In this document: piece after piece, positions 8,053-31,294 of the stretch
Numbering within the stretch: the stretch's first letter is position 1
Layout of the letters: every line of letters starts with the position of its first letter
DNA from: a virus
Lineage: Duplodnaviria > Caudoviricetes
DNA: 42,674 bases
IMG/VR virus record: IMGVR_UViG_3300033407_000045
Coordinates: 1-42,674 of that record
Strand: one strand, 5' to 3'
The notes under the pieces: generated by a model
The model's input: only the letters and a program-made list of their open reading frames with translations
Told to the model about the DNA's origin: nothing
Databases searched by the model: none
Translations under genes and position numbers: made by a program

Positions 8053-8056
8053 CGCG

Positions 8057-9142
8057 ATGCCTCCGCACGTTTTCCCGTCGAAGAACGACCTCAACGCCGG
8101 AACGCAAGGGCTCGGTCGCACCTTCACCGAGCAGAACTGGGAGCGCGTGCTCACGCGCGCGATTCCGCGGAACTTCGTCATCTCGGGCCTCTCGGTGTCG
8201 GTGGTTGGGCTCGAGGCGCAGATCGCGGCAGGCAGCGCGATCATCGACGGACGCTACGTCGCGACCGACGAGGTGCTGACGCAGGATCTCACCGCGAGCT
8301 CCGAGTGGCGCGTCCTCCTCGAAGCGACGCAGTCGGCCGGGCTCGTCACGACGATACAGGCGAGGCGGCAGTCGAACTCCGATCCGACCATCGATCCGCT
8401 CGCGAACACCGTGATGCTCGCGCGCGTGACGACTGGCGTCTCAAGCGCGACGGCCATTCACGATGCGAGGCCGTGGGGTGCTGGACACCTGATCGAGTTC
8501 GTCTACGACGGCGACGGGAGCTCCGATCGCGCCATCAACCTCGGCGCTCCGCCGCGACTCGTCTTCCTTCGCAGCCTCGACGATGATCACATCTTCGCGG
8601 TCGCTGGCCCAGAGACTGTGCGTGATCGGAACTTCGCGGGGAACGGAGTCGGGGACCTCTTCGGCTTCGGCTTCGAGAAGGTCCAGTCGTTCATCAACGG
8701 GACGCAGATCTATCGCGCGAGCGCGACCTGGACGATGCTCCTCGATGTCGACGAGACAGAAACGAAGGACGTGACCGTTAGCGGTGTCGATCCGGCAGAC
8801 GACAACTTCGTGCAGGTGCACTATCCGCCGCTCACCGACGATCAGGATCCGGACATCTTCCTGACGGCGTGGGTGCAAGCCCTGAACACCGTCCGTGTGA
8901 AAGTGCATAACGGCACCGGATCCGGCATCTCGTCACTCTCGGACGACGTGACGGTGATGGTGACCGTTCCTCCGATCTCCTCGGTGGCGGTGGGTTCGAC
9001 GCGCTACCTCGTCCATCCGGAGGTCGGTCAGTCCGCAGAGTGGCGCCCACAGATCACTGCGACGGGAATTGTCGTCGGCGGCACGAGCGGAGCTCAGATC
9101 AACGCAGCCGGAAAGCGCTACGCCGTCATGGCCGCGTTTTGA
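8057..9142 (+). CDS. Putative tail fibre/minor tail protein
   Basis: N-terminal VISGLSV...IAAGSAIIDG fibre-like motif, YDGDGSSDRAINLG motif and NAAGKRYAVMAAF C-terminus. Confidence 0.6.
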   Translation: MPPHVFPSKNDLNAGTQGLGRTFTEQNWERVLTRAIPRNFVISGLSVSVVGLEAQIAAGSAIIDGRYVATDEVLTQDLTASSEWRVLLEATQSAGLVTTIQARRQSNSDPTIDPLANTVMLARVTTGVSSATAIHDARPWGAGHLIEFVYDGDGSSDRAINLGAPPRLVFLRSLDDDHIFAVAGPETVRDRNFAGNGVGDLFGFGFEKVQSFINGTQIYRASATWTMLLDVDETETKDVTVSGVDPADDNFVQVHYPPLTDDQDPDIFLTAWVQALNTVRVKVHNGTGSGISSLSDDVTVMVTVPPISSVAVGSTRYLVHPEVGQSAEWRPQITATGIVVGGTSGAQINAAGKRYAVMAAF

Positions 9143-9163
9143 ACGAACGGGAGCCGAGACCCG

Positions 9164-9496
9164 ATGACCGAAACAAAGCCGGACCCCCCATCCGGAAAGA
9201 CGAGGAAGATGGAATCGCGCTCTCCCGATCGCATCGCGGGCGACCGTGCGAACAAGCTGCAGTGGTGGTTCATGGGACTGACGAGCACGCTCTTGTTAAC
9301 GCTCGGAGCTGGATGGTGGCAGCACGTCAACGGACGCCTCTCTTCCATCGAGCAGTCGTTTCCCGCGCTCCTCCGCGAGATGCTGCGCGACCACGAGTCG
9401 CGCCCGCATCCAAACTCGATCTCACCGCGCGAGTGGGGATCGATCGAGGCGCGGCTGACGAGGATCGAGCTGAAGATCGACGCGCTCGGGCGCTGA
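9164..9496 (+). CDS. Small membrane protein (holin-like candidate)
   Basis: One hydrophobic segment (WWFMGLTSTLLLTLGAGWW) and a coiled-coil C-terminus. Last gene of the tail operon. Confidence 0.5.
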   Translation: MTETKPDPPSGKTRKMESRSPDRIAGDRANKLQWWFMGLTSTLLLTLGAGWWQHVNGRLSSIEQSFPALLREMLRDHESRPHPNSISPREWGSIEARLTRIELKIDALGR

Positions 9497-9563
9497 CTCG
9501 GCCGAGTTCGGTCTCACTGGTACCACGCGCCTCGTTCAGCATCGGCGCGCGCGAGAGATCGGC

Positions 9564-9734
9564 TCATCGCAGGCACGCCTCCAGTGCGCGGATGACGGTG
9601 TCAGTCAGCGTCGCGCCGTCCCGTGCGGCGCGCGCCTCGAGGCGCCGGCGGAGCTCCGGCGAGAGCCGGAGAAGGAGCTGCTCTGTCCGCCCGGAAGGCG
9701 GTCGCCCGCGGCCGCGGGCCTTCTTCTTCGCCAT
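9564..9734 (-). CDS. Ribbon-helix-helix (Arc/CopG-like) DNA-binding protein, 56 aa
   Basis: Manually translated, not in the ORF track: MAKKKARGRGRPPSGRTEQLLLRLSPELRRRLEARAARDGATLTDTVIRALEACLR. Strand-helix-helix pattern, divergent from the 9857 operon. Confidence 0.8.
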   Translation of the reverse strand: MAKKKARGRGRPPSGRTEQLLLRLSPELRRRLEARAARDGATLTDTVIRALEACLR

Positions 9735-9779
9735 GCGGAGAGGGTAGCGGAATTATTTGGCGATATCAAGAATTAGGCG

Positions 9780-9807
9780 TTGACCGCGGCGGAATAGGTG
9801 ATATCAT
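9780..9807 (+). promoter_or_regulatory. Sigma70-like promoter for the accessory operon, with GATATCA repeats
   Basis: TTGACC (9780-9785), 16-nt spacer, extended -10 TGnTATCAT (9799-9807) in an AT-rich intergenic island. GATATCA occurs at 9762 and 9800. Confidence 0.6.
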
Positions 9808-9856
9808 GTATTCGTTGGCTGGGAATCACCTCGGCCAGGGAACACAGGAGATCACG

Positions 9857-10747
9857 ATGTCCAGAGTCGAAAAGATCGGTCGCCGTCACTACCTCCGGGG
9901 CACGCCGTTCGCCGCGAAGGACCAGATTCGGTCCGCCGGCTGCAAGTGGGACCCGGCCGAGAAGTCCTGGTGGACCGCAAAGGCCGACGTCGCCGCGGAG
10001 CTCGTCGCGAGCCTCTCCTCGTCGAGCTCATCGAGCAGCGAGAGCGCCCCGGACGCGCCCGGACTCGACGCGACCGTCGCCGGCCGCGCCGAGTACAAGG
10101 GCCGGACCTACTACGTAGCCGCGCGGAGTGGCCGCTACGACGACGAGCGGCCGGAGCCAGTCACGAGCCGGGACGGCGCGCGGATCCTGCTCTACTTCCG
10201 CGACGGCTCGCGGCAGTTCTGGGCGGCGCGCGCGGCCGCGCGGGTCGTCAAGGGATACTCCCGCGGTCAGACGATCCGTTCGCTCCGTGATTACGCGGAG
10301 CGCGCGGAGCGCACGAAGGCCGAGCGCGCGACGCCCTCGACGGAGCCGGTCGGCCCGGCGGTCTGCCGAGCGCAAGGGAAGACGCCCTACGAGCGAGACG
10401 AGGTCCTCATCGCGCGCCTCACAGCGATCGAGATCGCCGAGTGCGAGGCACGTCAGGGGCTCTCGGCCGCGATCGCCGGCGCGCCTGACGAGCGCGGCAA
10501 GCCGCAGGTCGTGTGCGTCGTCGCCTGGGCGCGCTCGCTGAGTGACGACGACGTCGAGGAGCAGGACGCCTGGAGCCACCAGCACACGGCCGTCCTGCGA
10601 CTCGCGACGGCCGACGAGGCCGCCCCGATCGTCGCAGCGCGAGGCCTGGAGGAGCGGCGCGCTGCCGCGGTCGTGCAGGTCGCAGAGATCGTGGGCGCGC
10701 TGCCGCGCGTCGAGTCGCTCGAGGACGCAGGATGGGAGGGTGTCTGA
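9857..10747 (+). CDS. Hypothetical early protein, N-terminal DUF5710-like motif
   Basis: ATG 9857 with AGGAG RBS. TPFAAKDQIRSAGCKWDPAEKSWW motif followed by a Ser-rich linker. Confidence 0.7.
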   Translation: MSRVEKIGRRHYLRGTPFAAKDQIRSAGCKWDPAEKSWWTAKADVAAELVASLSSSSSSSSESAPDAPGLDATVAGRAEYKGRTYYVAARSGRYDDERPEPVTSRDGARILLYFRDGSRQFWAARAAARVVKGYSRGQTIRSLRDYAERAERTKAERATPSTEPVGPAVCRAQGKTPYERDEVLIARLTAIEIAECEARQGLSAAIAGAPDERGKPQVVCVVAWARSLSDDDVEEQDAWSHQHTAVLRLATADEAAPIVAARGLEERRAAAVVQVAEIVGALPRVESLEDAGWEGV

Positions 10748-10748
10748 C

Positions 10749-11360
10749 ATGCGAGAGACTACGAGACTCCTCGATCGGATCGAGCCAGACACGCCACCGT
10801 CGCGGCGCTACTCGCGACTGCTGCGGAGCTCGCTCCTCGAGCTCCGCGACCCGAACGACGGCCAGGACCCCGACCCGGCCACGAAGACGCGGCACCAGTA
10901 CGCCCGGGCCGGCGGCGTACTCTGGTCGCGGCGCCTGCCGCCCGAGTCGGTCGGCGACGAGTGGCTCGACGGCCCGGCGCGCTGGGAGCGGGTCGACCTC
11001 GGCCATGCGAGCGAGCTCCTCCGGGCCTTCGCGCGAGAGGGTCCGGAGTTCTCCCTCGCCGTTCTCCGGCGTCAGCGATTCTACGTCGCAGCCGACGACG
11101 AGTACTGCGTCCGCGGCGTCTACGTCGACGCGACGGACGAACTCGCGATCGATCTGCCCTATGGTCCAGTGACGGACGCGTGGTGGGACGTGCCGCTCCC
11201 GCAGTGCCCTGACTGCGGCGGCGACGTCGTCTGGTGGGAGGCCGGGTACGTGCCGGGGACGCGGCGCTGCGTGGGCGCGCCGCTCCGGCGAGGAGAGTAC
11301 CTGCCAGATCGCGGCTGCGGGTCGATGTTCGTGGTCGCGAGCCAGGAGACTGAGAGATGA
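10749..11360 (+). CDS. Hypothetical protein with C-terminal zinc ribbon
   Basis: GGAGG RBS. CPDCGG...C...GCGS motif. ATGA overlap with the next gene. Confidence 0.6.
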   Translation: MRETTRLLDRIEPDTPPSRRYSRLLRSSLLELRDPNDGQDPDPATKTRHQYARAGGVLWSRRLPPESVGDEWLDGPARWERVDLGHASELLRAFAREGPEFSLAVLRRQRFYVAADDEYCVRGVYVDATDELAIDLPYGPVTDAWWDVPLPQCPDCGGDVVWWEAGYVPGTRRCVGAPLRRGEYLPDRGCGSMFVVASQETER

Positions 11361-12364
11361 GCAACAGACTGTGGATCCTCGGGGCAGCCGACCCCGAGAT
11401 GGAGCGTATCGAGGCGCTGCTGATCGCCGCCGGCGAGCGTGTCGCGCATGCGCAGATCGCCGGCGAGCGGGTGCGCGGCGGCGACGCGTACCGCATGGAC
11501 GGGCACCGACCGCTATGGATGGCTGCGCCATCGGATCTCTGGGCCGACGGCTGGTACGCGGCGGCCTACCACGTGGAGTGCGACACGGCGCTCGACCGGC
11601 ACGTGCATCGTATCGGCGTGCGCGTCGCGGTGATCGACCACCACCGGCCCGGTGACCCGGGCTACGGTCGCCCGCCTGAGGAGTTCCTCGCGGCGTCGTC
11701 AATAGGGCAGGTGATCGCGGCGCTCGCGCGACTCGGGCTCACGCCCGAGACGTGGTCCGGATGGGTAGACCGGACATCTCCCGCCGGCGTGATCCATCGC
11801 GGGTACTGCTGTGACGGGCTGGGCCCACGCTGGATGCTGGCCACCGGGGAGGCCGCGCGCGAGATACCGGACGATCTCGTCCTCGCAGCCGCCGGGGATC
11901 AATGCCCGGCGTCGGCCTATCGCGGCCTCTGCCCAGGCGTCGACCCGGACGAGCTGATGCGCTGGCGCGTCGCGACACGTGCGGCGCATCAGGGACGCCC
12001 GGCCGAGGAGATCCTCGCGGACGTCGAGCGCGCGATGGCCGCGATCTCGTCGGCGCCGCGCGTCGACCTGGCTGATCCGTCCGACTCCAGCACGGTCGAG
12101 CTGGTCGCAGACCTGCGCGGCTCGCACGTCTCAGAGGCGCCCGAGGCGTCGCTGCGTCTCGGCGTCCCGATCCTCTGCGAGGGTCTGCCGGACTCGCGGT
12201 CCGGCAGACGAAAGGTGAATCTGCTCGGCGACGCGGGCGGCGATGCGGTCCGCGCCTTTCTCGGCGGGTGGGCCGAGGCCGAGGGTCTCGTCGACTGCTA
12301 CGGAGATCCGGCCCGCGGCTTCGCCGGCGGGTATCGGGAGCGCGAAGGAGGGAGCGATGACTGA
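11357..12364 (+). CDS. DHH-like phosphoesterase-family hypothetical protein
   Basis: LGAADPEM, VIDHH and SSIGQV motifs, and a C-terminal Gly-rich YGDPARGFAGGY. Confidence 0.55.
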   Translation: MSNRLWILGAADPEMERIEALLIAAGERVAHAQIAGERVRGGDAYRMDGHRPLWMAAPSDLWADGWYAAAYHVECDTALDRHVHRIGVRVAVIDHHRPGDPGYGRPPEEFLAASSIGQVIAALARLGLTPETWSGWVDRTSPAGVIHRGYCCDGLGPRWMLATGEAAREIPDDLVLAAAGDQCPASAYRGLCPGVDPDELMRWRVATRAAHQGRPAEEILADVERAMAAISSAPRVDLADPSDSSTVELVADLRGSHVSEAPEASLRLGVPILCEGLPDSRSGRRKVNLLGDAGGDAVRAFLGGWAEAEGLVDCYGDPARGFAGGYREREGGSDD

Positions 12365-13262
12365 GCACGTGACCCGCACGGGCCGCACGGGCCGGACGGT
12401 GACGATCGAGTCGAGGATCGTCGAGGCGCAGGGGCGCAGGGGCCTCGGCCAGCCGCTCAGGGGCTGCTCCGAGATGATCGCTACTCCCGAGAGCTCGCTC
12501 GGCTGGGAGCACTGCGGCCGGGGCGGCCTCGAGCTCTACTGCGATCCCGGCTGCGGCCGGGAGGAGCGCCGCAAGTGCTACTGCGACGAGCATGGAGGCG
12601 CGGAGCGCGCCGCGGAGCGACTCCTCGAGGAGTGGGCCGTGGTCGCCCCAGACTCGGTCGGGGGCGACTACGAGGTCCAGGAGGCCGGCTGCGCCTCGCT
12701 CACGAGCGTGGACGTCTACGTCGTGACGCGGCCGCACGAGGGACGCTACGTCGTCGCGCTCGGCATCGGTGGGCACACGGTCTCGCTCCGCGGCAGTCAC
12801 CCCGATCGCGAGGCCGCGACCCTCGCCGGCGTCGAGGCCTGGCGGGAGCGCGTCGGCGCCGACCTCGAGGCGATCCGGGCAGCGCGCGGCGGGACGCTCG
12901 ACTGGGGCGGCCCGGTCCGTCCGCGCCCCGAGCCGATCGTCATCCACGCCGCGGCGGGTCAGTCGGCCTACGCGGCGCTCCGGGTCCGGGAGATCCTCGC
13001 GCTCGTGCCGGACGCACACGTCAGGACGGTCCCCGTCTGCGAGCGCTGGGTGAACGGGCACGGGACGCACGCGATCGCGCCCGAGCAGGCGACCGAGCAG
13101 GCGACCGAGATCGCCGGCACGCGCGGCGTCGCGTACGTCGACGGCCACGACATCGTCTACGTGCTGCCGCGGCCAGCCTCGGGGGACTACGCGCCGACCC
13201 TCCTCGGTGCGGAGAACTGGTCCCACCGCAGCGCGGAGCAGGTCGCCGCGCGGATCGCGTAG
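12357..13262 (+). CDS. Hypothetical protein (Cys-rich N-terminus)
   Basis: ATG 12357 with strong GAAGGAGG RBS. Converges on the integrase. Confidence 0.65.
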   Translation: MTEHVTRTGRTGRTVTIESRIVEAQGRRGLGQPLRGCSEMIATPESSLGWEHCGRGGLELYCDPGCGREERRKCYCDEHGGAERAAERLLEEWAVVAPDSVGGDYEVQEAGCASLTSVDVYVVTRPHEGRYVVALGIGGHTVSLRGSHPDREAATLAGVEAWRERVGADLEAIRAARGGTLDWGGPVRPRPEPIVIHAAAGQSAYAALRVREILALVPDAHVRTVPVCERWVNGHGTHAIAPEQATEQATEIAGTRGVAYVDGHDIVYVLPRPASGDYAPTLLGAENWSHRSAEQVAARIA

Positions 13263-13295: not shown

Positions 13296-14177
13296 CTAAA
13301 TCTTATGTGGGTTCCCCTTTGCGCTCCCTGGCGGCTGACCGACCAGATGGTCCGTCCGCCGCTCGACTCCGCGTCTGAGTGTGTCGGGTGGGAGCAGGCA
13401 GTAGCGGCGGTGGATCGAGTCGGTCCTCCAGCCTGCGATCTGGCACTGCGCCGGGATCGGCACGCCGGCATCCGTCGCCGTCGCGGCGAAGAAGCGCCGC
13501 AGGTCGTGGAACCAGAGCTCAGACCGTCCAGCGCTGTCGACAGCTCGTCTCCATGCGCCGGCGAAGTGCAGCACGGCTCGACCTCCGCGGTGGAAAACGT
13601 GCGGCCCTCTCGCCACGAGCAAGCGGCCGAGCGCGATCCCCTGCAGGCCGAGTGAGAGCGGGATCCGGTGGACTCGCCGGCCCTTCGTCCGCTTCTGCGG
13701 GACCGTCACCGAATCGAGGTCGTCCGAGAAATCGTCCCAGCGGAGCCGGAACACCTGCGTGCGGCGCCAGCCCGTGAGCACGGCCCAGCGAACGCCATCG
13801 GCCACGGGCGGGTCGAGGTAGTCGAGGACGCGGAGGATCGCGCTGATCTCTTCCCTGGTCGGCGTGACCTCGCGAACGTTGTGCGGCTTCGGGACGTCGA
13901 TCCACGGCGCGTGGTCGACGAGCTCGAGTCGCGTCGCGATCCGGTATCCGCGCTTGATCGCGCCGAGCTCCTTCGCGATCGTCGCGAGGGCGGCGCCCTC
14001 GGCGCTGCGCGTCGCCATGTACTCGTCGAGGTCTGCTGCCGTGGGGAGTCGATCTGCCGGGAGCAGACGACGGAGGTGCTTCGCACGGAACCGGAGCGTG
14101 CGGAGAGAGGATCTCTCGGTGAGCGTGTAGTCACGCTCCACGAGCGCGATGAGGTCGCTGGCGTTCTCGGCGGCCAT
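13296..14177 (-). CDS. int: Tyrosine recombinase/integrase lacking an arm-binding domain
   Basis: Catalytic set present: LTGWR, KRTK, FHDLRR, GWRT, HRRY. 293 aa with no upstream in-frame start. Confidence 0.9.
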   Translation of the reverse strand: MAAENASDLIALVERDYTLTERSSLRTLRFRAKHLRRLLPADRLPTAADLDEYMATRSAEGAALATIAKELGAIKRGYRIATRLELVDHAPWIDVPKPHNVREVTPTREEISAILRVLDYLDPPVADGVRWAVLTGWRRTQVFRLRWDDFSDDLDSVTVPQKRTKGRRVHRIPLSLGLQGIALGRLLVARGPHVFHRGGRAVLHFAGAWRRAVDSAGRSELWFHDLRRFFAATATDAGVPIPAQCQIAGWRTDSIHRRYCLLPPDTLRRGVERRTDHLVGQPPGSAKGNPHKI

Positions 14178-17373: not shown

Positions 17374-17424
17374 GCGACGCCGAGCGTGCGCGCCGGCATC
17401 GGCGTCGCAAAGGGAGGTGAAGAG

Positions 17425-18219
17425 GTGAAAGAACCGCGCTACGACGAGCTCGGCGCGACGACGCTCAAGCGGATCTCGAACTCGACGCACCGCACGTTCG
17501 CGATGTGCGCGGAGCGCTACTGGCTGCTTCAGGACGTCGAGGAACGCGCGACGACGATGGCGCTCGCGATCGGCTCGGCGGTGGCGAAGGGCGTCGAGTT
17601 CGACAACCGCGGCAAGATCGGCCGCGAGAACGCGCGGAGTCTCGGGCAGCTCCTCGAGATCTCGGAGAGCTACTTCGCGGCGCTCGTCGAAGAATCCGAG
17701 CATGCGGCGAGCGTCTGGGAAGTCGAGCGCGCGCGCGACGACGCGGTCGCGGCGATGCGCTGCTACCTCGCCGAGATTTCGCCGAAGGTCCTGCACGTCG
17801 TCGCGACGGAGAAATCCTTTCGCGCGCGCATCGGCCACGGCATCGAGCTCGTCGGCCGCATGGACACGGTCTGCGATGCGGAGGTCCGCGACATTAAGAC
17901 CGGCCGGCGCTGGCGAGACGAGGACGCGCATCGCTCGCTCCAGCTCACCGACTACGACCTCCTCTTCGAGGCGGAGTACGAGACGCGGCCGCGGGTCCTT
18001 TGGATCGATTCGGTCTATCGCGTCTCGGGGGGCTGGAGAGCGCGAGCGATCCCGACTCACCGCAGCCAGGGGCAGCGGGCGCGATTCGTCGAGAGTGTTC
18101 GGCGCACGGTGGCGTCGATCGAGAGCGGTGCGCAGCACGCGGCGCCTGAGGGCGCCTGGTGGTGCAGCCGCGAGTACTGCCCGGTCTGGCAACGCTGTCG
18201 CGTGCGGGGCTGGGACTGA
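17425..18219 (+). CDS. PD-(D/E)XK exonuclease, Cas4/AddB-like with 4-Cys cluster motif
   Basis: CAERY, GRMD, DIKT and QLTDY motifs, and C-terminal WWCSREYCPVWQRC. GGAGG RBS. Confidence 0.85.
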   Translation: MKEPRYDELGATTLKRISNSTHRTFAMCAERYWLLQDVEERATTMALAIGSAVAKGVEFDNRGKIGRENARSLGQLLEISESYFAALVEESEHAASVWEVERARDDAVAAMRCYLAEISPKVLHVVATEKSFRARIGHGIELVGRMDTVCDAEVRDIKTGRRWRDEDAHRSLQLTDYDLLFEAEYETRPRVLWIDSVYRVSGGWRARAIPTHRSQGQRARFVESVRRTVASIESGAQHAAPEGAWWCSREYCPVWQRCRVRGWD

Positions 18220-19813: not shown

Positions 19814-22171
19814 ATGCAGAAGACGATAGAAGATGGCGCGAGCCGAATCGTGCGTGTCGAGCTCGATGGCTGGAAGGGTGAGGACCGATCCATCGAGATC
19901 GACGGCCCGACGATCCTCCGCGGCCCGAACGGAGCGGGGAAGACTGCGGTCCTCGACGCGATCGTCTGGGTGCTCACGGGGAACACGCCGAAGGGCCGGA
20001 CGAACGCGGCCGCGGCGAAGTTCTTCCCGCCGCGTGGCGGCTCGGTGAAGCTCACCGACGTCGCGGGTCGCTGGATCCGGCGGAAGCTCACGGTCGACCA
20101 CGAGAAGGGCACGGTGTCGCAGCCCGAGCCCGAATACGACTCGGAGCTCTCGGAGCTGTCTTGGCGTGCCGACGACGAGCTCCTCCGCGTGCGGGACTTC
20201 CTCGCGCTCTCCGCGGAGAAGAAGCGCTCGTACATCCTCTCGCGCTTCGCGGCGGCAAGCGGGGACGAGCACTCGGGCATCGTCGACCAGGTGCGGCTGG
20301 CGCTGATTCGCGATGTCGCCGGCGTCGCGGCGACGCTCGACACCTACACGCGCACGGCGGACCTCCCCGACTTCGACGACGAGCGGAAACCGGTGCGGGG
20401 CATCGTGGAGCTCGTCGATGCGGAGCGCGGCATCGCCGAGGAGCTCGCCGCGCTCGTCCGGCCGAAAAAGTCGACGGCCCAGATCTTCGCCGCGCTCGTC
20501 GACGTCGCTAAGGAGCGGCTGTCGCAGTGGCGGCGGAACGCCGGCGACGCGCGCGGCGCGAAGCGGGAGCTCGAGGCGGCAGCAGCCGAGAGCGCGTGGG
20601 CGCAGGCGGCGGAGCCCGGAGCGAAGCGCGTTCTCGCCGTGGCCGAGGAGCGCTACCGGCTGGCGCGCGAGAAGATCGCTGCGGCCGAGGAGCTCGAGAC
20701 GTCGCTCTCGGAGAGGCGCAGTCGCGCGGAGGTCGAGGATGACATAGCAAAGAACCGCGAGGCTATCGACGCTCTGGAATCGACACTCGCTGAGCTCGAC
20801 CGCCTCGCCGAGAAGACGCTCCCGCCGCCGGATCTCCCCGCGCCGGCGACGATCGAGGCGGTGGAGCCATCCTCGCTGACGCTGAAGCACGAGCGGACCG
20901 AGATCGAGAAGCGCATCGAAGAGAGCGAAGCCCTCGCTGAAGGCGTCGCCGCGGCGAAGGAAACGCGCGACGAAGCGAAGGCGCGCGTCGAGCGGCGCCT
21001 CGAGTCGACCGCGCAGAAAGCTTGGGAGCTCATCGGCGCGATCCCCGACAGCGCCCACGAGCTGATCCCGGAGCTCCGCGAGAATCTCGAGCGACTGATC
21101 GAGGATCACCTCTACAGCCTCCAGACCGAACGGGAGGCGGTGCAGCAACGCTACGACGATCTCTTCGAGGCCGAGGAGATTCGCGACGCGCACGTCGACA
21201 AGCACGGCAGCCTCGAGGAGCTCTGGGCCGCCGAGCGGAAGCTCCGCGAAAGGGTCACGGAGGCCGTGCGCCTCGAGGCCGAAGCCGAGAAGATCCAGTC
21301 GGACCACAAGGCAGAGCTCGATCGACTCCAGGCCGAGCACGACAAGCTCGCCGCCGCAGTCAAGCGGCGCGCGGAGAAGCGGCGCACCGAGCGCGATGAA
21401 TGCGTCCGCGAGATCGCGAAGCATGAATCCGCGATCGCGACGCTCGAGGAGGAGCTCGCGCGCCGGGACGACGACGACGGCGAGCTCGAGGATCGCATCG
21501 CCGAGCTCCGCCGCGAGGCCGGCGACCTCGAGGAGCTCCGTGCGAAGAAGGGCGACGCCGCGGCGCAGCTCGAGCGCATCGAGGAGGCGCTCGGGAAGCA
21601 CCGAAGCTACGAGGAAGCGTGCGAGGCGCTCACGGCCGCCGAGCTGCGTGAGGCGGCCTGGAAGGCGACGAAGCGCGCGATCGAGGGCGCACGCGAGGCG
21701 CTCGTCCAACGCGTCAAAGGGCCGATCCTCGCGCGGATAGGGGCCTTCCTCGAGTCCACCGGCTGCACCGAGCTCCCGTACCTCGACCTCGAGACGTCGA
21801 CGGGCCAGCCGCAATACGAGCTCGGCTGGATCTCAGAGCGCGGACGCATCGCGTTCGAGGCGCTCTCGGGCTGGCAGCAGACACTCCTCGCCGCGGCGCT
21901 GGTGCTCGCGATCGCGCCGGAGACTTCGGGGAAACGCGTGCTGCTCGTCGAGGCGGGAGAGGTGAGCGCGGAGAACCTGCCGCATCTCCTCGCCGGGCTC
22001 GGTGGTCTCGGCTCGGAGCTCGATGCGTGTCTCGTCGCGACGTGGCAATCGATCGAGGCGGAAGGGTGGCAGGTCGTCGAGATCGGAGAGGAGGTGGCGC
22101 TTCAGCCGCCCCGACGCTTGCGAGCTGCTGCCGATACTTGGCCGGCCGCGGAGACAGGAGACACGAGATGA
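19814..22171 (+). CDS. Rad50/SbcC/SMC-like ABC ATPase
   Basis: Walker A GPNGAGKT, long coiled coil, signature LSGWQ, degenerate Walker B LLVEAGE. Confidence 0.85.
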   Translation: MQKTIEDGASRIVRVELDGWKGEDRSIEIDGPTILRGPNGAGKTAVLDAIVWVLTGNTPKGRTNAAAAKFFPPRGGSVKLTDVAGRWIRRKLTVDHEKGTVSQPEPEYDSELSELSWRADDELLRVRDFLALSAEKKRSYILSRFAAASGDEHSGIVDQVRLALIRDVAGVAATLDTYTRTADLPDFDDERKPVRGIVELVDAERGIAEELAALVRPKKSTAQIFAALVDVAKERLSQWRRNAGDARGAKRELEAAAAESAWAQAAEPGAKRVLAVAEERYRLAREKIAAAEELETSLSERRSRAEVEDDIAKNREAIDALESTLAELDRLAEKTLPPPDLPAPATIEAVEPSSLTLKHERTEIEKRIEESEALAEGVAAAKETRDEAKARVERRLESTAQKAWELIGAIPDSAHELIPELRENLERLIEDHLYSLQTEREAVQQRYDDLFEAEEIRDAHVDKHGSLEELWAAERKLRERVTEAVRLEAEAEKIQSDHKAELDRLQAEHDKLAAAVKRRAEKRRTERDECVREIAKHESAIATLEEELARRDDDDGELEDRIAELRREAGDLEELRAKKGDAAAQLERIEEALGKHRSYEEACEALTAAELREAAWKATKRAIEGAREALVQRVKGPILARIGAFLESTGCTELPYLDLETSTGQPQYELGWISERGRIAFEALSGWQQTLLAAALVLAIAPETSGKRVLLVEAGEVSAENLPHLLAGLGGLGSELDACLVATWQSIEAEGWQVVEIGEEVALQPPRRLRAAADTWPAAETGDTR

Positions 22172-22407
22172 CGACCTACTATCGGACGACCGGCAGCGTG
22201 CGAGGAGACTGCGGACACCGGCACCGGACGCTCAGCGGCGCGATCCGCTGCCTACGCCGCGACCAGAGCGGATGCGCAGGGCAGGGTGGCTACTCGGATC
22301 GCCGCATCGTCGAGATCGACGATGACGGCGAGGAGAACGCATGGGACGAGTACGAGGAGGGCTTATGGATGCGTGAGGCTCTCGAGCAGGAGGACTATCC
22401 GCTCTGA
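22168..22407 (+). CDS. Hypothetical phage protein
   Basis: AGGAG RBS and ATGA overlap. GSVRGDCGHRHRT...GGYSDR motif. Confidence 0.7.
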   Translation: MTTYYRTTGSVRGDCGHRHRTLSGAIRCLRRDQSGCAGQGGYSDRRIVEIDDDGEENAWDEYEEGLWMREALEQEDYPL

Positions 22408-22571
22408 CAACGAAAGAGCTCCTCGAGCTCCGCCGCAGCGCGGAGTGGCTCGACCTCGACGCTCTCGTCGACCGTATCGACGAGGCGCTCCTCGACCCGG
22501 CGCTGAAACCGACTCTCAAGACAGGCGATGCGATCCTCCTCATGGAGCTCGCGTACCGCCGCAACAGGTGA
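22404..22571 (+). CDS. Small hypothetical protein with probable CTG start
   Basis: AGGAGG at 22388, CTGA overlap with the upstream stop, and a 55-aa helical ORF (LTTKELLELRRSAEWLDLD...) with genome-typical codons. Confidence 0.5.
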   Translation: MTTKELLELRRSAEWLDLDALVDRIDEALLDPALKPTLKTGDAILLMELAYRRNR

Positions 22572-22578
22572 ATCGAGG

Positions 22579-22680
22579 ATGCCTGAAAGACCACCATTCG
22601 ATGCCGCCGGCTTCGTCGACGAGCTCCTCGCGTCGGAAGCGAGGATCGACGAGAAAAAGCGGAAGGAATCCCAGTCGTGA
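22579..22680 (+). CDS. 33-aa hypothetical peptide
   Basis: MPERPPFDAAGFVDELLASEARIDEKKRKESQS. GTGA overlap with the initiator gene. Confidence 0.35.
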   Translation: MPERPPFDAAGFVDELLASEARIDEKKRKESQS

Positions 22681-23486
22681 CGAGGCCGAAGCTCCCGTAC
22701 ATGCCGTGGTATCCGGTCGACTACGACGCGGACGACTTGGTGCAGGATCTGAGCGAGCTCGCGGACCTCTTCTATCGCCGTCTGCTCGACCTTCAGTGGC
22801 GCCGGAGAGGGCGCGGAATCCCACCATCCGTAGTAACGGATGGTGGGATCGTACGTTACAACGCACGGTGCAACGATCGGTACGACGTACGGTGGGGCGA
22901 TTTGTGGTCGGAGGTCGCGCAGTTCTTCGAGTTTGTCGAGAACGAGGACGGAGAGCAGTGCTTCCGAAACGTCAGACTCCACAACGAATGGTTGGAGCAC
23001 CAAGAGAAGTATCAGAAACGACTTGCGGCCTCCGCAAAGGCTGTTGCAGCCCGAAAGCAGAAACCGAACGTTGCACCGTGCGTTGCACCGGACGTTGAAC
23101 GTCGCGTTCAACCAACTCATAACTCAGAACTCAGAACTCATCATCCAGAACACACATCCGGAGCGCGCGTGCGCGCGAGTGTGGATGGTGGGGCTGAGGA
23201 GTCCGATCCGGATTCGGACCCGGAAGCGGACGCGATCGCCGACCAGAAGGGCGCGGTCTGGCTCCGGCTGACGACGCACCCGTGGGGCTTTCGCAAGCCC
23301 GAAAAGCTCGCGGCGATCATCGCTCGCGGCACGACGCCCGAGGACCTCGACGCTTACGAGCGTCAGTCGCCGAAGCACGGCGGCATGGCGTGGGCGCGAG
23401 CGAAGATCCAGGACTTCGCTCGGCCGGGAGACATCCCGCGCAGCGGCCGCCGCTCAGCGCCGGCGAACGACGACGGGGGCTGGTGA
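22677..23486 (+). CDS. Replication initiator, DUF1376/YdaU-like
   Basis: KLPYMPWYPVDYDAD...LS...YRRLLDLQW and NVRL motifs. Internal iterons. Followed by a DnaC-like gene. Confidence 0.75.
   Translation: MTRPKLPYMPWYPVDYDADDLVQDLSELADLFYRRLLDLQWRRRGRGIPPSVVTDGGIVRYNARCNDRYDVRWGDLWSEVAQFFEFVENEDGEQCFRNVRLHNEWLEHQEKYQKRLAASAKAVAARKQKPNVAPCVAPDVERRVQPTHNSELRTHHPEHTSGARVRASVDGGAEESDPDSDPEADAIADQKGAVWLRLTTHPWGFRKPEKLAAIIARGTTPEDLDAYERQSPKHGGMAWARAKIQDFARPGDIPRSGRRSAPANDDGGW
22854..23141. repeat. Putative replication origin: two inverted 12-bp-period iteron arrays plus 4x AACTCA(G/T)
   Basis: CGTTGCACCG-like units at 23069, 23081, 23093, 23105. Inverted units at 22854-22901 (exact CGGTGCAACG at 22866). 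Heptamers at 23114-23141. Confidence 0.65.
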
Positions 23487-23489
23487 CGC

Positions 23490-24266
23490 ATGACGAGCCC
23501 GCTCTACGGCAATCGCAGCTACGGCGAACTCGGCACGCTCCGGCCGCCGGGTCACATTCCCGATCACCTGCGCCAAGCCCCACGCGACGCGATCGACAAG
23601 GCGCAGTCCGAGTCGTACTCGCGGCTCGTCCGCGACCTCGAGCGACTGCGCGACCTGCACTGCCCGCCGGGAACTCCCGAGCCCACGCCGGCCGCTCCGC
23701 CGAAGCCGAACGCCATCGATCTCGGCATCCCGCCGGCGTACCGCGTCGTGGAAGCGAGCGACTTCTATCCCGACGAGTTCGCCGACGGAATCCCGCTCGT
23801 CGGCCAGGACGAGTCGGTGCTGATCGTCGGAGTCGATGCGCTCTTCGACAAGCGCCGCGGCGTCTACACGAGGACGAACGCTCGCGTAAGCGAGTACGCA
23901 GCGTACCTCGCGATCAACAGCTTGGTGCGCTGGTCCTCGGTGCTCGCGCTCTCGTCGGATCTCGCGCAGAACCCAGCACGAGAGCGCGGCGAGTGGAGCG
24001 AGACGAAGAAGCTCGCGCTGACGACGCGACTCGTGCTCGACGACATCGGCTCCGGGCTCAACTGGCCGCGCACCGCTGGACACGTCACCGCGCTGCTCGC
24101 CGCGCGACTCGAGTCCGGCCCGCTCCAGCCCGATCGCAGCGGCCGGCAGACGATCGTCACGTCGAGACACTCACTCGGTGAACTCGCGGAGACGGACCCG
24201 AGAATCGCCGAGCTCCTCAGCGGCATGAGACGCATTCGGATGGCTCCCAGCGAAACGAAGGAATGA
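23490..24266 (+). CDS. DnaC/IstB-like helicase loader, Walker A degenerate
   Basis: LVLDDIG and TIVTS motifs retained. No GxxGxGK[ST] after SVLIVG. Confidence 0.6.
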   Translation: MTSPLYGNRSYGELGTLRPPGHIPDHLRQAPRDAIDKAQSESYSRLVRDLERLRDLHCPPGTPEPTPAAPPKPNAIDLGIPPAYRVVEASDFYPDEFADGIPLVGQDESVLIVGVDALFDKRRGVYTRTNARVSEYAAYLAINSLVRWSSVLALSSDLAQNPARERGEWSETKKLALTTRLVLDDIGSGLNWPRTAGHVTALLAARLESGPLQPDRSGRQTIVTSRHSLGELAETDPRIAELLSGMRRIRMAPSETKE

Positions 24267-24610
24267 TGAATTGGCATCGCTTCGTGCGCTACCGCTTCGC
24301 TGACGGAACGATCGGGCGAGACGAGGTGCCGACGGGAGTCGGCCGCTCCGAGATTCGCTTCGAGTGTCTCGACGGGGCGCAGCTCCGCGGCGAGCTTGAG
24401 CAGCTCCTGATCGCCTCGTCGATCAGCAAGCACGACGGACGGCGCGTCGGCGTGGAGACCCAAGGACGAGGACGTCGCGACCTCGCTCGTGCGTTTCGCG
24501 CGCAAGTGGAGTCACGAGGACGAGGACCTCCTCGACTGCAGCGACGCGCGCACCGTGACGCTCACGAACGCTCGTTTCAAAGACTGCTGGATACCGCTCC
24601 AGATCGTTAG
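24263..24610 (+). CDS. Hypothetical protein; 3' half probably out-of-frame fusion
   Basis: AAGGA RBS and ATGA overlap. After about 24440 the coding-like frame switches to the Csf3-like ORF. Confidence 0.4.
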   Translation: MMNWHRFVRYRFADGTIGRDEVPTGVGRSEIRFECLDGAQLRGELEQLLIASSISKHDGRRVGVETQGRGRRDLARAFRAQVESRGRGPPRLQRRAHRDAHERSFQRLLDTAPDR

Positions 24611-24914
24611 CGTCGAACGCATCGAGTTCGTCGCCGTCGGCGACTACGTCCACGTGCGCCAGTTGGCGCGACGCGTCACGCAGATCGGCAAGAAGGGCGC
24701 GCATGGATACGGCGAGGTCGGCCACTGTCGTGTCTCGCGGCTCGCCGGCGACGCTGCCGGCTTCGATCGTGACTGGCGCGCGGGAGATCGACCGGCGCGC
24801 AATCTGCCGGCCGAGTTCTGCCGCGACCGTGGGCTCGTGACTCGGGAGCGGATGGCGCCTCTCAGGCCTCCGTACTGGAGGCGTCGAGCTGCGCACGTCA
24901 CGGTCGTCGGATGA
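24411..24914 (+). CDS. Type IV CRISPR Csf3 (Cas5-family RAMP)-like protein, N-terminally truncated
   Basis: GASAW, FKDCWIPL, IEFVAVGD, VTQIGKKGAHGYGEV (G-loop), RNLP and LRPPYW motifs. Frame opens after the stop at 24408-24410; first start is GTG 24489. Confidence 0.65.
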   Translation, partial: SPRRSASTTDGASAWRPKDEDVATSLVRFARKWSHEDEDLLDCSDARTVTLTNARFKDCWIPLQIVSVERIEFVAVGDYVHVRQLARRVTQIGKKGAHGYGEVGHCRVSRLAGDAAGFDRDWRAGDRPARNLPAEFCRDRGLVTRERMAPLRPPYWRRRAAHVTVVG

Positions 24915-24981
24915 TCGACTTGCGCGCTCGGCGCGAGCTGGATACGGTAGAGCCCGCAACGGTGGACAGAGCCGGCCTGGA

Positions 24982-25461
24982 TTGCCGGCGCGGGGATGCT
25001 CCGCCTTGCTACGCACAGCACTCGCTCTCGCCGTACTGCTCACCGCCACTGGCTGCGGCTCGCTCTGGTCGCGCGCCGGCGACTACGCGCTCGAGAAGGC
25101 CGACCTGGCCGCGACGAAGACGGCCGAGGCTGTCGGGAGCGCCGTGGGCCGCGCCGTCGGTGGCGCAATCGAGCGGCTCTCAGAGCGCGTCGAGACTCGG
25201 CTCGCACCGGCACTCGATCGCATGACCGAGAGTGTCGCGACGAGGCTCGAGTCCCCGCCGGCGGAAGATGATCCGCTCTCGGAGCAGGCGATCTACTGGC
25301 TCGGTGGGGCTCTGATCGCGCTCTTTGGCGGCCGTGAAGCGCTCGCCCAGCGGCGCAACGCTCGCACGGACGAGCGCAACGCTCGCTCGGACGAGCGCAA
25401 GGCGCGCATCGAGGGCGAGGTCGACGCGCTCAAGGCGACGATCGGGAAGGGGGCAGCGTGA
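24982..25461 (+). CDS. Lipoprotein with C-terminal hydrophobic helix (unimolecular spanin candidate)
   Basis: LRTALALAVLLTATG-C lipobox (alternative TTG start at 25006), AIYWLGGALIALFGG segment and a basic tail with a 21-bp tandem repeat at 25354-25407. Confidence 0.55.
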   Translation: MPARGCSALLRTALALAVLLTATGCGSLWSRAGDYALEKADLAATKTAEAVGSAVGRAVGGAIERLSERVETRLAPALDRMTESVATRLESPPAEDDPLSEQAIYWLGGALIALFGGREALAQRRNARTDERNARSDERKARIEGEVDALKATIGKGAA

Positions 25462-25465
25462 CTGA

Positions 25466-25714
25466 CCCCGTCGCGACTCGCACAACCAGGCGCACCACGC
25501 GCTCGTCACCGCCGTGCACGGAGAGGCGGTCGACGGCTACGTCCCGTGCATCAACCTCGTCTTCGTCTCGGGAGACGGCGACCGGACCGACGGCTACGGC
25601 CGGCAGATTGAGCGGGAAACGTCGCTCGTTCACCGTGACCAGCAGTCCGCGGCCGGCCAGTACTTCCGATTCGCCGACGAGTCGCCGCGGGAGCGAGTGG
25701 CGGCGTCGACCTGA
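25466..25714 (+). pseudogene. 5'-truncated or frameshifted phage hypothetical gene
   Basis: Coding-like frame DSHNQAHHALVTAVHG...CINLVFVSGD...YGRQIERETS begins after an in-frame TGA. The coupled GTG at 25458 is in another frame. Confidence 0.45.
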
Positions 25715-25811
25715 CGGTGACGTGGGAACCGACGAGGGACCTGCGCGCTGTTTGAACTGCGAGCGAATTCCAGCGCGAGCCCATCGATGCGAGCAATGAG
25801 GAGTTGATCGC

Positions 25812-25883
25812 GTGAACGAATACCCGATCCTGCAGCACTTCCATTTCGAACATCTCCCCGAAGACCAAGGGAAGCGAACGTGA
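25812..25883 (+). pseudogene. 3'-truncated remnant of a common small phage protein
   Basis: GAGGAG RBS, then MNEYPILQHFHFEHLPEDQGKRT*, resembling only the N-terminus of the ILQFFxYxHLP family. Confidence 0.4.
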
Positions 25884-28774
25884 GACGAGACATCGCAGCG
25901 CTGTTCGGCGGCGCCATCACCGCGGTCTCCTCGGGCGCTGCGGTCTTCTTCGGCGCGATCGCTCTCTCGCTCGTCCTGGCTCAGACCGAGCACGTCGAGA
26001 CGTACTCGATCGAGGGCCACGGCACGCGCAACCCTGACGGCACGATCACCGCGACGCTGACGCTGACCGAGATCCCGCCGATTCCGGAAGAGCCGCCGGA
26101 GCCGGAGCCCGAGCCGGAGCCGGAGCCCGAGCCCGAGCCGCCGGCGCCCACTGAAATCCGTGTCGCGTGGCAGGAGACCGGGCCGGCAAACTCCCTCGAC
26201 TCGGCCGACACCTTCGAGGTGCTCGCAGACGAGATCGTATCCCGCGGCTCGGGTCCGAACTGCCACGCGCACACGGACCAGATCTTCGCCGCGCCGATCG
26301 AGCTCTACGCCGAGGTCTACGTCGCGACGACGGCGAGCGGCAGCGGCTGCGGCATCACGCTCTGCTCGCAGTACCCAGCGAGCGATACGTACCTGCGCGT
26401 GCGCACGTACTCGGGCGGCGCATGGGACGCCAACGTACACCCGAACGCGCCGATCGCGGAGTCGCCGGCCATGCCCGACCCCCGCGCCGGTGAATGGTGG
26501 TCGATCCGCGTTCGGGTGCCTGAGGAGGGGGCGGTCGCCGCGCGTGTCTGGCGCGCAGTCGACAGCGAGCCAAGCGAATGGTCGACCGCTCCCTACTCCG
26601 GCCCGCGCACGGGCCGCATCGGACTCTGGTATCACGGCGCCGCGGGATTCCGCTGGCGCGCGCTCGCGGTTACGATCGGCGACTTCGATGATGCTCAACT
26701 CTCAGTCCTACCCCTCACATGGGATCCAGCCGAGGATCCTCGACCCAACGATCCGGCTCCGGATCCAGACCCAATAGACCCCACCCCTACGGATCCGGAG
26801 CCGGAACTACCACCCGAAGACGAGGGAACCGCGAGTAACGAGGACGACATCATGGGAGTGCGTGCGATCCGCTGGAAGCTGCGTAAGTTTCGTGAGGGCG
26901 AGTCGACGCCGTTCGCTGTCGTCAAGGCCGACGGGAACGTGATGCTTGACGAGGGCATCGGCGAACTCCTTGATCTCTTCGTGGGTGCTGGTGGCACTCC
27001 GTTCTCGAACGGCAACGCGCATCTCGCGGTCGGCGACTCGAGCACGGCAGCGGACGCAGCGCAGACGGGACTGGTCGGGGCGAACAAGCATTACGAGCCC
27101 GTCGACGCGAGCTATCCGCAGGTCGTCGGGCAGGAGGCGATCTTCCGCGCGACGTTCGAGTCGGGCGATGCCAACTTCGCGTGGGAAGAACTCTCGATCG
27201 CGAATGGGAACAGCGCGGCGGTGAACCTAAACCGCAAGGTTGAGTCGCTCGGGACGAAGACCTCGGGGCAGATCTGGGAGCTCACGGTCACGCTCGGTGA
27301 GGCTGTGGCCGGCGAGGGCGAGCTCGTGATGTCCGTCTCGCACGAAGACATCACGGTGAATTTCTCCGGTGCCGGCGCCGAGATCGAGTACACCGCGCTG
27401 GGCGATCCAGTGCTGATCGAGAGCGCGACAGTGTCGGACTACACGCTCGACGACTCGCCGACCTCGACGCCGCACTCGGAGGGCGGCGAGCGCCGGCACG
27501 GCGCGATGCTCAACATCCTGCCCGACGGCCACCCTGACGTGCAGGGCGACGTCAAGGAGTACTCGCAGGGATTCGATGGCTCGATCGGCTACAGCACTGG
27601 GCGCGATGCATCACTGTCGCTGCCGATTGCGATGTCGGCTGGGGACACGCTCGTGATCGGTTGCTCGTGGCTCGACTCGGAGTCTGCCGATCCGAACTTT
27701 CCGAACGTCGACTCGCGCGGCACCCGTGGCCTCAAGACGGCGATCGCTCTGTCGTCGGTCTCGTCTGCGTACCGCGGCCTTATGTCGGGCTACTTCCGCC
27801 CGTCTCCGTACTCGCGCCAGTTCGCACCGGTTCCTGTCTCGCAGGTGAACCTTTCGCTGCTCCCGTCGCTCGCAGCGCCGGGCACCGCGCCGAACGTCGC
27901 GGCCATCGTGACGAGGGCGAAGCGCTACTCGGTCGACTACTGCGGTCTTTGGTCCGGACGCTACCACCGAAACCGTCGGGCGACCGCCGACTACGGCACC
28001 GACATGGCGCTCGAGTACGCGCGCATTATGCTTCTGCTGTGTACCGACGAGCCGACGACTGAGGAGAAGCAGGACCTCGCGTACGCTCTCGTCCAGCGCG
28101 GGATCGATCTCTACGGATCGATGATGGAGCACGGCGTTTGGCCTGGCGCTGGCGGACACGGAGTCGGCAGGCTCCCGGTGCTCCTCCTCACGGCGTACCT
28201 CCTCGAAGACTCGACGATGATGGCGAACATCGTCGACCGCATCGATGGAATCTCGGGGGACGAATACCCGGGCTACCGCTTCGACGAGCACATGCATTAC
28301 TACTACGCGCCGAACGCCGCGCATCCCGTCTTCTATGATGCGCCGACGAACTCGCAGCCCGTCTACGTCGACGCGCTCTTCGGACTTTCTGCGTCGCTTC
28401 CGACCGGGTGCAACGCCGGATATGTGAACCACGACTGCCGCGATCCTGATGGGCTGATCAACAGCCCCGACATCGGCATCGACCCAGAGACCGGGCTGCC
28501 TTGGGAGGCGGGCTCGTACATTCGCAACGGCACGATGACGGCGTCACTCGGCGAGGTGCTAGCGCTTAGAATCGTCGGATTCGCTACGAGCGGCAACGCA
28601 CACGACATCGGCTCATCGCCGGCAAAGATCCTCTATCCGTACTTCGCCTACAGCGACTACTACTACGCCGGCATCCCGATCGAGTTCGCAGGCGATCCTA
28701 ACGTCACGTTCTGGCAGTACAGGAATGACACGTTCGTGCGCGACATGTACAACATGCACAGAGGTTCGTTCTGA
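25880..28774 (+). CDS. 964-aa multidomain protein: signal peptide, Pro-Glu linker, lectin-like domain, embedded virion collar-like domain, large C-terminal domain
   Basis: Hydrophobic N-terminus ending VLA/QTE, (PE)n repeat, Trp-rich beta domain, Pro/Asp linker, and a segment paralogous to 30779-31294. Confidence 0.8.
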   Translation: MRRDIAALFGGAITAVSSGAAVFFGAIALSLVLAQTEHVETYSIEGHGTRNPDGTITATLTLTEIPPIPEEPPEPEPEPEPEPEPEPPAPTEIRVAWQETGPANSLDSADTFEVLADEIVSRGSGPNCHAHTDQIFAAPIELYAEVYVATTASGSGCGITLCSQYPASDTYLRVRTYSGGAWDANVHPNAPIAESPAMPDPRAGEWWSIRVRVPEEGAVAARVWRAVDSEPSEWSTAPYSGPRTGRIGLWYHGAAGFRWRALAVTIGDFDDAQLSVLPLTWDPAEDPRPNDPAPDPDPIDPTPTDPEPELPPEDEGTASNEDDIMGVRAIRWKLRKFREGESTPFAVVKADGNVMLDEGIGELLDLFVGAGGTPFSNGNAHLAVGDSSTAADAAQTGLVGANKHYEPVDASYPQVVGQEAIFRATFESGDANFAWEELSIANGNSAAVNLNRKVESLGTKTSGQIWELTVTLGEAVAGEGELVMSVSHEDITVNFSGAGAEIEYTALGDPVLIESATVSDYTLDDSPTSTPHSEGGERRHGAMLNILPDGHPDVQGDVKEYSQGFDGSIGYSTGRDASLSLPIAMSAGDTLVIGCSWLDSESADPNFPNVDSRGTRGLKTAIALSSVSSAYRGLMSGYFRPSPYSRQFAPVPVSQVNLSLLPSLAAPGTAPNVAAIVTRAKRYSVDYCGLWSGRYHRNRRATADYGTDMALEYARIMLLLCTDEPTTEEKQDLAYALVQRGIDLYGSMMEHGVWPGAGGHGVGRLPVLLLTAYLLEDSTMMANIVDRIDGISGDEYPGYRFDEHMHYYYAPNAAHPVFYDAPTNSQPVYVDALFGLSASLPTGCNAGYVNHDCRDPDGLINSPDIGIDPETGLPWEAGSYIRNGTMTASLGEVLALRIVGFATSGNAHDIGSSPAKILYPYFAYSDYYYAGIPIEFAGDPNVTFWQYRNDTFVRDMYNMHRGSF

Positions 28775-30778: not shown

Positions 30779-31294
30779 ATGAGCGTAAGCGTGCTCGAGC
30801 GACCGAAGCGCCGCGAGGTCTTCACCCTCCGCCGCTGGGAGTCGCGAGAAGACTATGAGCTTTGGCGCGACGGTGACATGGTCGCGCAGCCCATCGAGGA
30901 GAGCGTGTTCGAGAAGAACGTGCTTCTCAACGAGGGCATCGGTGCCCTCCTCAACCTGCTGATCGGCGCGGCGGAAACCGCGTTCTCGAATGCCAACGCC
31001 TTCATCGGCGTCGGCGACGACAACACCGCGGAGAGCGCGGCGCAGACCGGTCTCATCGCCGCGACCAACAAGCTCTACAAGGCGATGGAGGCGAGCTACC
31101 CGCAGATCGCCTCACAGACCGTCACGTTCCGCGCCGTCTTCGGGACGAGCGAGGGGAACTTCGACTGGAACGAATTCACGGTGGCGTCGGGCAACTCGGA
31201 CGCTGCCGACAACCTCAACCGCAAGGTCTCAGCGCAGGGGACCAAGGCGTCGGGGCAGACCTGGACCATCGACGTCGCCGTCACGTTCTCGTGA
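30779..31294 (+). CDS. Virion accessory protein (collar-like domain)
   Basis: GAGAGG RBS. NVLLNEGI...IGVGD...QTGL...YPQ...FRAVF...NFDWNE...LNRKV...GTK pattern. Confidence 0.8.
   Translation: MSVSVLERPKRREVFTLRRWESREDYELWRDGDMVAQPIEESVFEKNVLLNEGIGALLNLLIGAAETAFSNANAFIGVGDDNTAESAAQTGLIAATNKLYKAMEASYPQIASQTVTFRAVFGTSEGNFDWNEFTVASGNSDAADNLNRKVSAQGTKASGQTWTIDVAVTFS

Follow-up and report, generated by a model that had tools for sequence, protein, structure and literature searches.

Subtype IV-B is the closest described system to the locus reported here. As set out in three accounts, it comprises csf1-cas11-csf2-csf3 together with a cysH-like gene, has no array (for example in Mycobacterium sp. JS623), occurs on plasmids and sometimes in prophages, and has an unknown function (PMC7937560, PMC8175902, PMC7038947). 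Structures of Csf3 come from type IV-A complexes (7XFZ and 7XG1, chain B; 8RC3 and 8RC2, chain F). A second group for comparison is formed by the anti-CRISPR proteins that derive from Cas subunits. According to the study that describes them, AcrIB3 is a full-length Cas5 homologue that is 38% identical to Cas5 and acts as an inhibitor, AcrIB4 is homologous to Cas8b over its last 90 residues alone, the two form old clades of their own with 45 and 49 homologues, true Cas5 or Cas8b gave no inhibition, and 358 orphan viral cas genes were counted, type IV included (10.1101/2023.06.24.545427). No type IV-derived anti-CRISPR was found in the literature searched, subscription journals lying outside its scope.

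The locus is located on a viral contig (IMG/VR record IMGVR_UViG_3300033407_000045) of 42,674 nucleotides (42.7 kb), the whole of which was analysed and is called the window below. It is a temperate tailed phage with a GC content per kilobase of 62-74%, encoding a tape measure protein, tail proteins, a Holliday junction resolvase, an exonuclease, Bet/RecT, terminase, portal and capsid proteins, and an integrase (Table 1). The missing piece of the genome is probably small, because both window ends fall within the tail gene block and the contig of another assembly measures 43,181 bases; an exact terminal repeat was sought at the window ends and none was present. Its terminase relatives are only 34-38% identical and have none of the eight tested local genes in common with it, and a synteny search through the neighbour genes of the csf3 remnant returned no locus. 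The region is associated with four sequencing runs (X1-X4), which are soil or sediment metagenomes by label.

Several other genes of the phage deserve mention. The exonuclease (17386-18219) has a C-terminal Cys cluster and matches a Cas4 model weakly (E 2e-5); it is better described as a phage exonuclease (PHROG 69, E 2e-12), lies two genes upstream of the Bet/RecT gene and is not CRISPR-linked. A 785-aa SMC/Rad50-like coiled-coil ATPase (19814-22171) is found within the recombination gene run. A 964-aa protein (25880-28774) contains a PE-repeat linker (26089-26151) that is a break point in assemblies, and has a domain in common with the product of gene 30791-31294 (PHROG 23653). Four genes without PHROG hits (9806-13262), with GC up to 74%, follow an AT-rich stretch in which a sigma-70-like promoter near 9780-9807 and two GATATCA copies were read by eye, and a small divergent ORF at about 9563-9734 on the minus strand looks by eye like a ribbon-helix-helix repressor; the gene group from about 9560 to 13262 may be an accessory or anti-defence operon.

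Table 1. Coordinates of features at and around the csf3 remnant (window numbering).
Feature	Positions	Strand	Basis or remark
3' remnant of csf3 (type IV Cas5 family)	24442..24914	+	profiles, P0002 and L002 alignment
ORF as reported by gene callers, 141 aa	24489..24914	+	start GTG
Upstream ORF, 115 aa	24263..24610	+	spans GTG at 24489
First nine codons of upstream ORF	24263..24289	+	common to X2 contig; left junction 24289/24290
152-nt coding-like patch	24290..24441	+	in frame with 24263 start; not Csf2 by profile
Weak possible microhomology	24429..24438	+	9/10 bases equal L002 217-226
Right junction	24441..24442	+	3' side identical to intact allele, 5' side unrelated
Upstream neighbour, 258 aa	23490..24266	+	no significant library match
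Downstream neighbour	24982..25461	+	likely start TTG 25006
Integrase	13296-14177	minus	

Identity and extent of the csf3 remnant

A first-pass annotation of this DNA had singled out an ORF with Csf3-type motifs, and these motifs are present in the order it gave in the 141-aa ORF, whose frame is open from 24411. Its assignment to the Csf3 family is borne out by profile searches (TIGR03116, E 1e-10; PADLOC Csf3_0_IV, E 2e-21), the TIGR03116 match covering profile positions 131-219 of 223 with 41.6 bits, under the 140-bit cut-off for the whole protein. The remnant also aligns by sequence to residues 122-213 of PDB 7xfz_B (E 0.016); a Pfam search of the remnant ORF gave no match. P0002, the best match of an initial protein search, is 70% identical, and G137, G143, G145, P198, Y199 and W200 (P0002 numbering) are invariant in all 15 aligned sequences. 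Both the G-rich loop and the C-terminal RPPYW, conserved motifs of Csf3, are retained in the remnant.

The N-terminal third was said to be absent, and indeed the remnant consists of 156 sense codons from 24444, which correspond to residues 81-236 of the frame in the sister contig L002; residues 1-80 are missing from the remnant and 1-95 from a product started at the GTG. That GTG is an internal Val codon (S-L-V-R) of the intact gene, read as GTC in L002 and GTG in an X2 contig. A full-length Csf3 with a complete RAMP fold is found in the L002 sister protein, not in the remnant. The AlphaFold2 model of the L002 protein (pTM 0.86; Foldseek match to Csf3 at E 3e-13) has the full sheet, whereas in the model of the 141-aa ORF, built with the same 111 relatives, the sheet is lost (pTM 0.59, central strands unpaired, best Foldseek E 0.25); its mean pLDDT is 87, the model being no measure of stability. 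The RAMP fold anticipated at the outset is thus recovered for the intact sister alone. The fragment has neither strand 1 (15-24) nor helix 1 (37-46), which occur in 108 and 109 of the 111 aligned relatives, respectively, and the 70-79 hairpin is gone as well.

The ribosome-binding site (AGGA/GAGG) proposed for the GTG does not hold: GAGG starts at 24468, 17 nt from the GTG, and belongs to Asp-Glu-Asp codons that are also present in the intact X2 allele. Pairing with the anti-Shine-Dalgarno sequence at -16 to -4 of this GTG amounts to +0.4 kcal/mol, the weakest of 26 starts by this computed proxy, and the GTG is covered by the off-frame read-through of the upstream ORF. A promoter scan of 22300-26000 yielded 0 sites against 0.2 expected by chance and so says nothing either way. 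Among the data sets listed with this region none is of RNA, which has no bearing on expression.

No other type IV gene accompanies the remnant, which had been described as solo: only one of the 53 window proteins matches a type IV model, namely the remnant itself. An HMM of Csf2 from three clade relatives gave a best E of 0.59 against 730 six-frame segments of the window, and tblastn of CysH, Csf1, Cas11 and Csf2 of related modules found nothing in the window under E 0.058; the CysH of the related locus L001, whose best E was 0.46, revealed no cysH-like gene of the IV-B kind. Nor does an array appear among the 20 largest repeat families listed in the window, none of which is regularly spaced, and an Rfam scan of the window gave 0 matches. 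As in IV-B, array, dinG and csf5/cas6 are lacking from the window (L001 agrees with regard to repeats only); csf1, cas11 and csf2, which IV-B has in an operon with csf3, are not found beside it. A faint Csf2 likeness had been suggested for LDGAQLRG in the upstream ORF. As a Csf2 remnant this ORF fails, with no BLASTP match, an hhalign probability of 0.4% (E 0.14) and 322 of 2000 shuffles scoring as high; by eye, its FxR..ADG..EVP..LRG looks Csf2-like despite these tests.

Junctions and sister alleles

A deletion junction had been predicted within 24435-24445, and the right junction can now be placed at 24441/24442. Homology to P0002 begins abruptly at 24444, from P0002 residue 58, and the first 57 residues of P0002 gave no match above noise in any frame of the window. 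Coding bias switches at about 24442-24443, from the frame of the upstream ORF to that of csf3. In X2, a soil run distinct from X1, a contig of 151 bases matches the window exactly over 24442-24529 but starts with 63 different bases, 30 of which read by hand translation as M-E-H-A-D-E-W-W-Y-R into the A-S-A-W of the window, as in P0002, and L002 carries at least 80 further 5' codons of csf3 before the reading frame runs off the contig end. This X2 contig and L002 carry the 5' part, so that the first third of a gene still whole in close kin is missing from the window. A simple frameshift within one csf3 gene was rejected, the missing 5' part matching nothing in the window.

A second junction lies to the left. 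Over 24217-24289 a further X2 contig matches the window exactly, after which it continues with 282 unrelated bases that remain in frame after the nine common codons. Since X2 differs at both junctions, the patch at 24290-24441 adjoins neither flank in X2, and it is either an internal segment of the lost DNA that survived between two deletions or the start of a different gene from which a single deletion extended into csf3, X2 then having another upstream allele; because the X2 pieces in 24180-25000 are unlinked contigs of 151-430 nt at depth 2-6, they allow no choice between one and two deletions. In the upstream ORF, codons 1-60 are coding-like (GC3 0.83), whereas the remaining codons (GC3 0.47) merely read through csf3 out of frame. 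No parent or homologue of 24290-24441 was found by searches that are weak for 51-60 residues, and a DNA pattern scan gave 0 matches. Just left of the right junction, the 9/10-base match to L002 is in the same frame by hand count (K-H-D-G against E-H-D-G) and is followed by 11 nt fewer than the intact gene has before Ala-Ser-Ala-Trp; it is a weak hint of possible microhomology, a match as good being reached by 93 of 3000 random 20-mers.

The upstream neighbour comes after a primosomal-protein-like gene (22677-23486), and its product contains LVLDDIG, which we take to resemble the Walker B motif of helicase loaders; the product of the downstream neighbour has an N-terminus that we presume to be lipoprotein-like. 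An X2 contig has the same junction between the csf3 stop and the downstream neighbour as the window. Farther downstream, an X2 contig skips 25565-25763 (199 bases), with most of the 66-aa ORF 25514-25714 gone.

Of the 473 bases of the remnant itself, 303 can be compared with X2 pieces, with 0 differences, and L002 differs at 25 of 471 bases (95% identical DNA). As 24 of these 25 differences are clustered in the first 178 bases, the last 259 being identical, a crossover inside csf3 is pointed to. Between the remnant and L002, dN is 0.030 and dS 0.136; the resulting dN/dS of about 0.22 reflects the past of the intact gene, because the measured selection predates the break. In L002, csf3 is followed (L002 713-1374) by 16 bases and a reversed 52-base piece that is 85% identical to 9445-9496, the 3' end of window gene 9164-9496; then come some 67 other bases and, again reversed, the 3' part of gene 12357-13262 (96%), an arrangement that places csf3 head-on to the accessory genes. 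A loose end of X3 at window position 24914 reproduces this downstream junction letter for letter, and X3 may itself be the source of L002. Near-identical csf3 sequences therefore have two downstream neighbours, one in the window and X2 and the other in L002 and X3. Judged from these contigs, the phage population is rearranging, with csf3 in at least two places.

The type IV-B clade of the remnant

A search with P0002 against 1.84 billion representatives returned 282 hits at E <=0.001 and 13 at 1e-30. Among the related loci, L001 and L004 have a complete cysH-csf1-cas11-csf2-csf3, with PAPS_reduct in both, and L005 has cas11-csf2-csf3 up to the contig end; csf2 is directly before csf3 in all three related loci with enough upstream DNA. 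The IV-B module of L001, a 66.7-kb viral contig, occupies about 3.4 kb (7253-10654) directly behind the tape measure gene and is followed by baseplate-like tail genes; L001 contains no array-like repeat. The complete module of L004 (440-3562) is on a contig that shares the assembly prefix of its name with the window; with a Csf3 at just 39% identity to the remnant, L004 is not the donor.

A FastTree tree was built on the remnant's columns only from 30 sequences, 5 from DNA and 25 best representative hits, two duplicates of loci and one long protein being left out. The remnant is sister to L002 (support 0.99) on a tip branch of 0.004 and falls inside a group of 18 with L001, L004 and L005 (support 0.81; inner nodes weak), so that in this tree its csf3 descends from genes of IV-B operons. 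Relatives with an intact operon are thus L001 and L004; beside the near-identical intact allele neither csf2 nor csf1 was seen, the close contigs being too short upstream. The operon-bearing relatives are only about 40% identical to the remnant, and it is from such distant kin that we infer the deletion of a module and a direct parent with the whole IV-B set. Elsewhere, 0 of 90 pattern matches in GTDB genomes and 0 of 69 in a second viral pattern scan were confirmed, annotated phages gave no match, a plasmid search gave 19 records, all with <36% identity, and no locus was confirmed for P0002 alone.

A probable recent relic and its alternatives

The 3' two-thirds of csf3 most likely stem from a type IV-B module without an array, of which they would be a recent and no longer functional residue. 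The first-pass annotation had left the choice between a relic of such a module and a retained subunit acting as a decoy; our data favour the former, and the latter receives no support. In the proposed course of events, the parent would have carried cysH-csf1-cas11-csf2-csf3 at the end of the replication gene run, and one or two illegitimate recombination events, in which the phage's Bet/RecT and exonuclease genes plausibly helped, would have removed everything up to csf3 codon 80, so that what is left of csf3 follows the first 60 codons of an unrelated gene in another frame. From GTG 24489, hardly any protein, if any at all, is predicted to be made, and any product, being without strand 1 and helix 1, would be expected neither to fold nor to join a Csf complex. 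What counts against a relic is that the remnant has neither a stop nor a frameshift; the frame would still be open because the time since the break has been too short for decay. The break is likely recent, given 0 differences in 303 bases and nesting among operon csf3 genes, and the open frame shows youth, not selection, because the X2 pieces match at all covered bases. Instead of losing the module, the phage could equally well have captured part of a csf3 from a co-occurring phage, because the downstream neighbour in L002 and X3 is different. The locus suggests that members of one soil phage population vary in their IV-B module and can do without it.

The boldest alternative is quite unlikely: a phage lineage would be turning csf3 into a stand-alone gene that travels among sister phages free of its module, and the intact or the C-terminal form would serve as a decoy that targets class 1 CRISPR complexes, much as AcrIB3 and AcrIB4 do but derived from type IV. 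That the truncated Csf3 is made from GTG 24489 and, as a faulty subunit, acts as a decoy anti-CRISPR by poisoning a complex of type I or type IV, whether it belongs to the host or to a rival element, is very unlikely: the frame is intact, the G-loop and RPPYW are kept and the gene points in the same direction as the replication genes, but there is no ribosome-binding site at a working distance, the start lies under the read-through of the upstream ORF, and the RAMP sheet is lost in the predicted model. Cas-derived anti-CRISPRs exist, as AcrIB3 and AcrIB4 attest (10.1101/2023.06.24.545427). Their clades are old, however, whereas the fragment, on its branch of 0.004 as sister to intact genes, is identical to the intact allele over 303 bases and forms no separate clade; a translation start of its own is likewise not seen by the computed pairing. 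Its 90% cluster has two members, both the same ORF, and the truncated form was seen in one of the four runs, X1, the probable source of the window. We keep a small probability for a decoy because AcrIB4 shows that truncation alone excludes no role.

That the junction is an assembly or amplification chimera, the csf3 of the real phage being intact, is highly improbable. The truncated form is known only from X1, possibly the window's own source, the evidence comes from contigs instead of raw reads, and several other junctions occur in the sister contigs. Against this, a Logan contig of X1 at depth 13.8 shows 0 differences over 21500-26088, and because it reproduces the window base for base the truncation is no simple assembly slip; no other X1 contig covers 24180-25000 at 97% likeness, the same ORF is recorded in JGI, ENA and Logan, and the repetition of the L002 junction in X3 suggests that such junctions are biological, unless X3 is the source of L002. 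X4 has no contig on the region at 97% likeness and so says nothing either way.

We assign an equally slight chance to a parent csf3 that was already solo, an intact orphan moved as a single gene in the manner of AcrIB3, of which the window would hold a broken copy. The two downstream neighbours of near-identical csf3, the recombination boundary inside the gene and the lack of a visible csf2 beside the close alleles speak for it, but upstream the close contigs end too soon to be informative, csf2 precedes csf3 wherever related loci extend far enough, and csf3 is the last gene of the module there, so that a whole module would give the same varied downstream junctions. Least probable of all is that a new N-terminus of 57 residues was joined in frame to Csf3 from residue 73 onward, in the past or still today via +1 frameshifting, and that 11 bases were lost later: the 9/10-base match in the same frame and gene-like codon bias on both sides agree with it, but random 20-mers match equally well at the frequency given above, the X2 allele matches only 6 bases there, two weak searches found no fused protein, no slippery run is seen by eye, and even the fused protein would be without strand 1 and helix 1.

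A recent leftover of a IV-B module, which remains our preferred reading, is as it stands an ordinary product of phage mosaicism. It illustrates that what seems an 'orphan' viral cas gene may in fact be a fresh deletion scar, and such scars form a class of false positives for screens that look for anti-CRISPRs among orphan cas genes. If assembled, the sister genomes would serve as natural plus/minus pairs in studies of the role of IV-B. Were a decoy role true, the fragment would represent a type IV-derived anti-CRISPR.

Compared with known systems, the locus resembles AcrIB3 and AcrIB4 in being an orphan cas homologue on a mobile element without an array or cas operon, and differs from them as a fragment that lacks the RAMP core and a ribosome-binding site and is known from one phage. 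The L002 model matches the IV-A Csf3 structures at E 3e-13 to 9e-11 with TM of about 0.67-0.72, whereas identity is 19-24% and the window has no DinG, Cas6/Csf5 or array. The closest likeness is to IV-B, with a Csf3-family sequence on a mobile element, no array, and the full IV-B gene set in L001 and L004; unlike a IV-B system, the window keeps only the last 156 codons of csf3, without csf1, cas11, csf2 and cysH, and thus holds the remnant of a system instead of the system itself.
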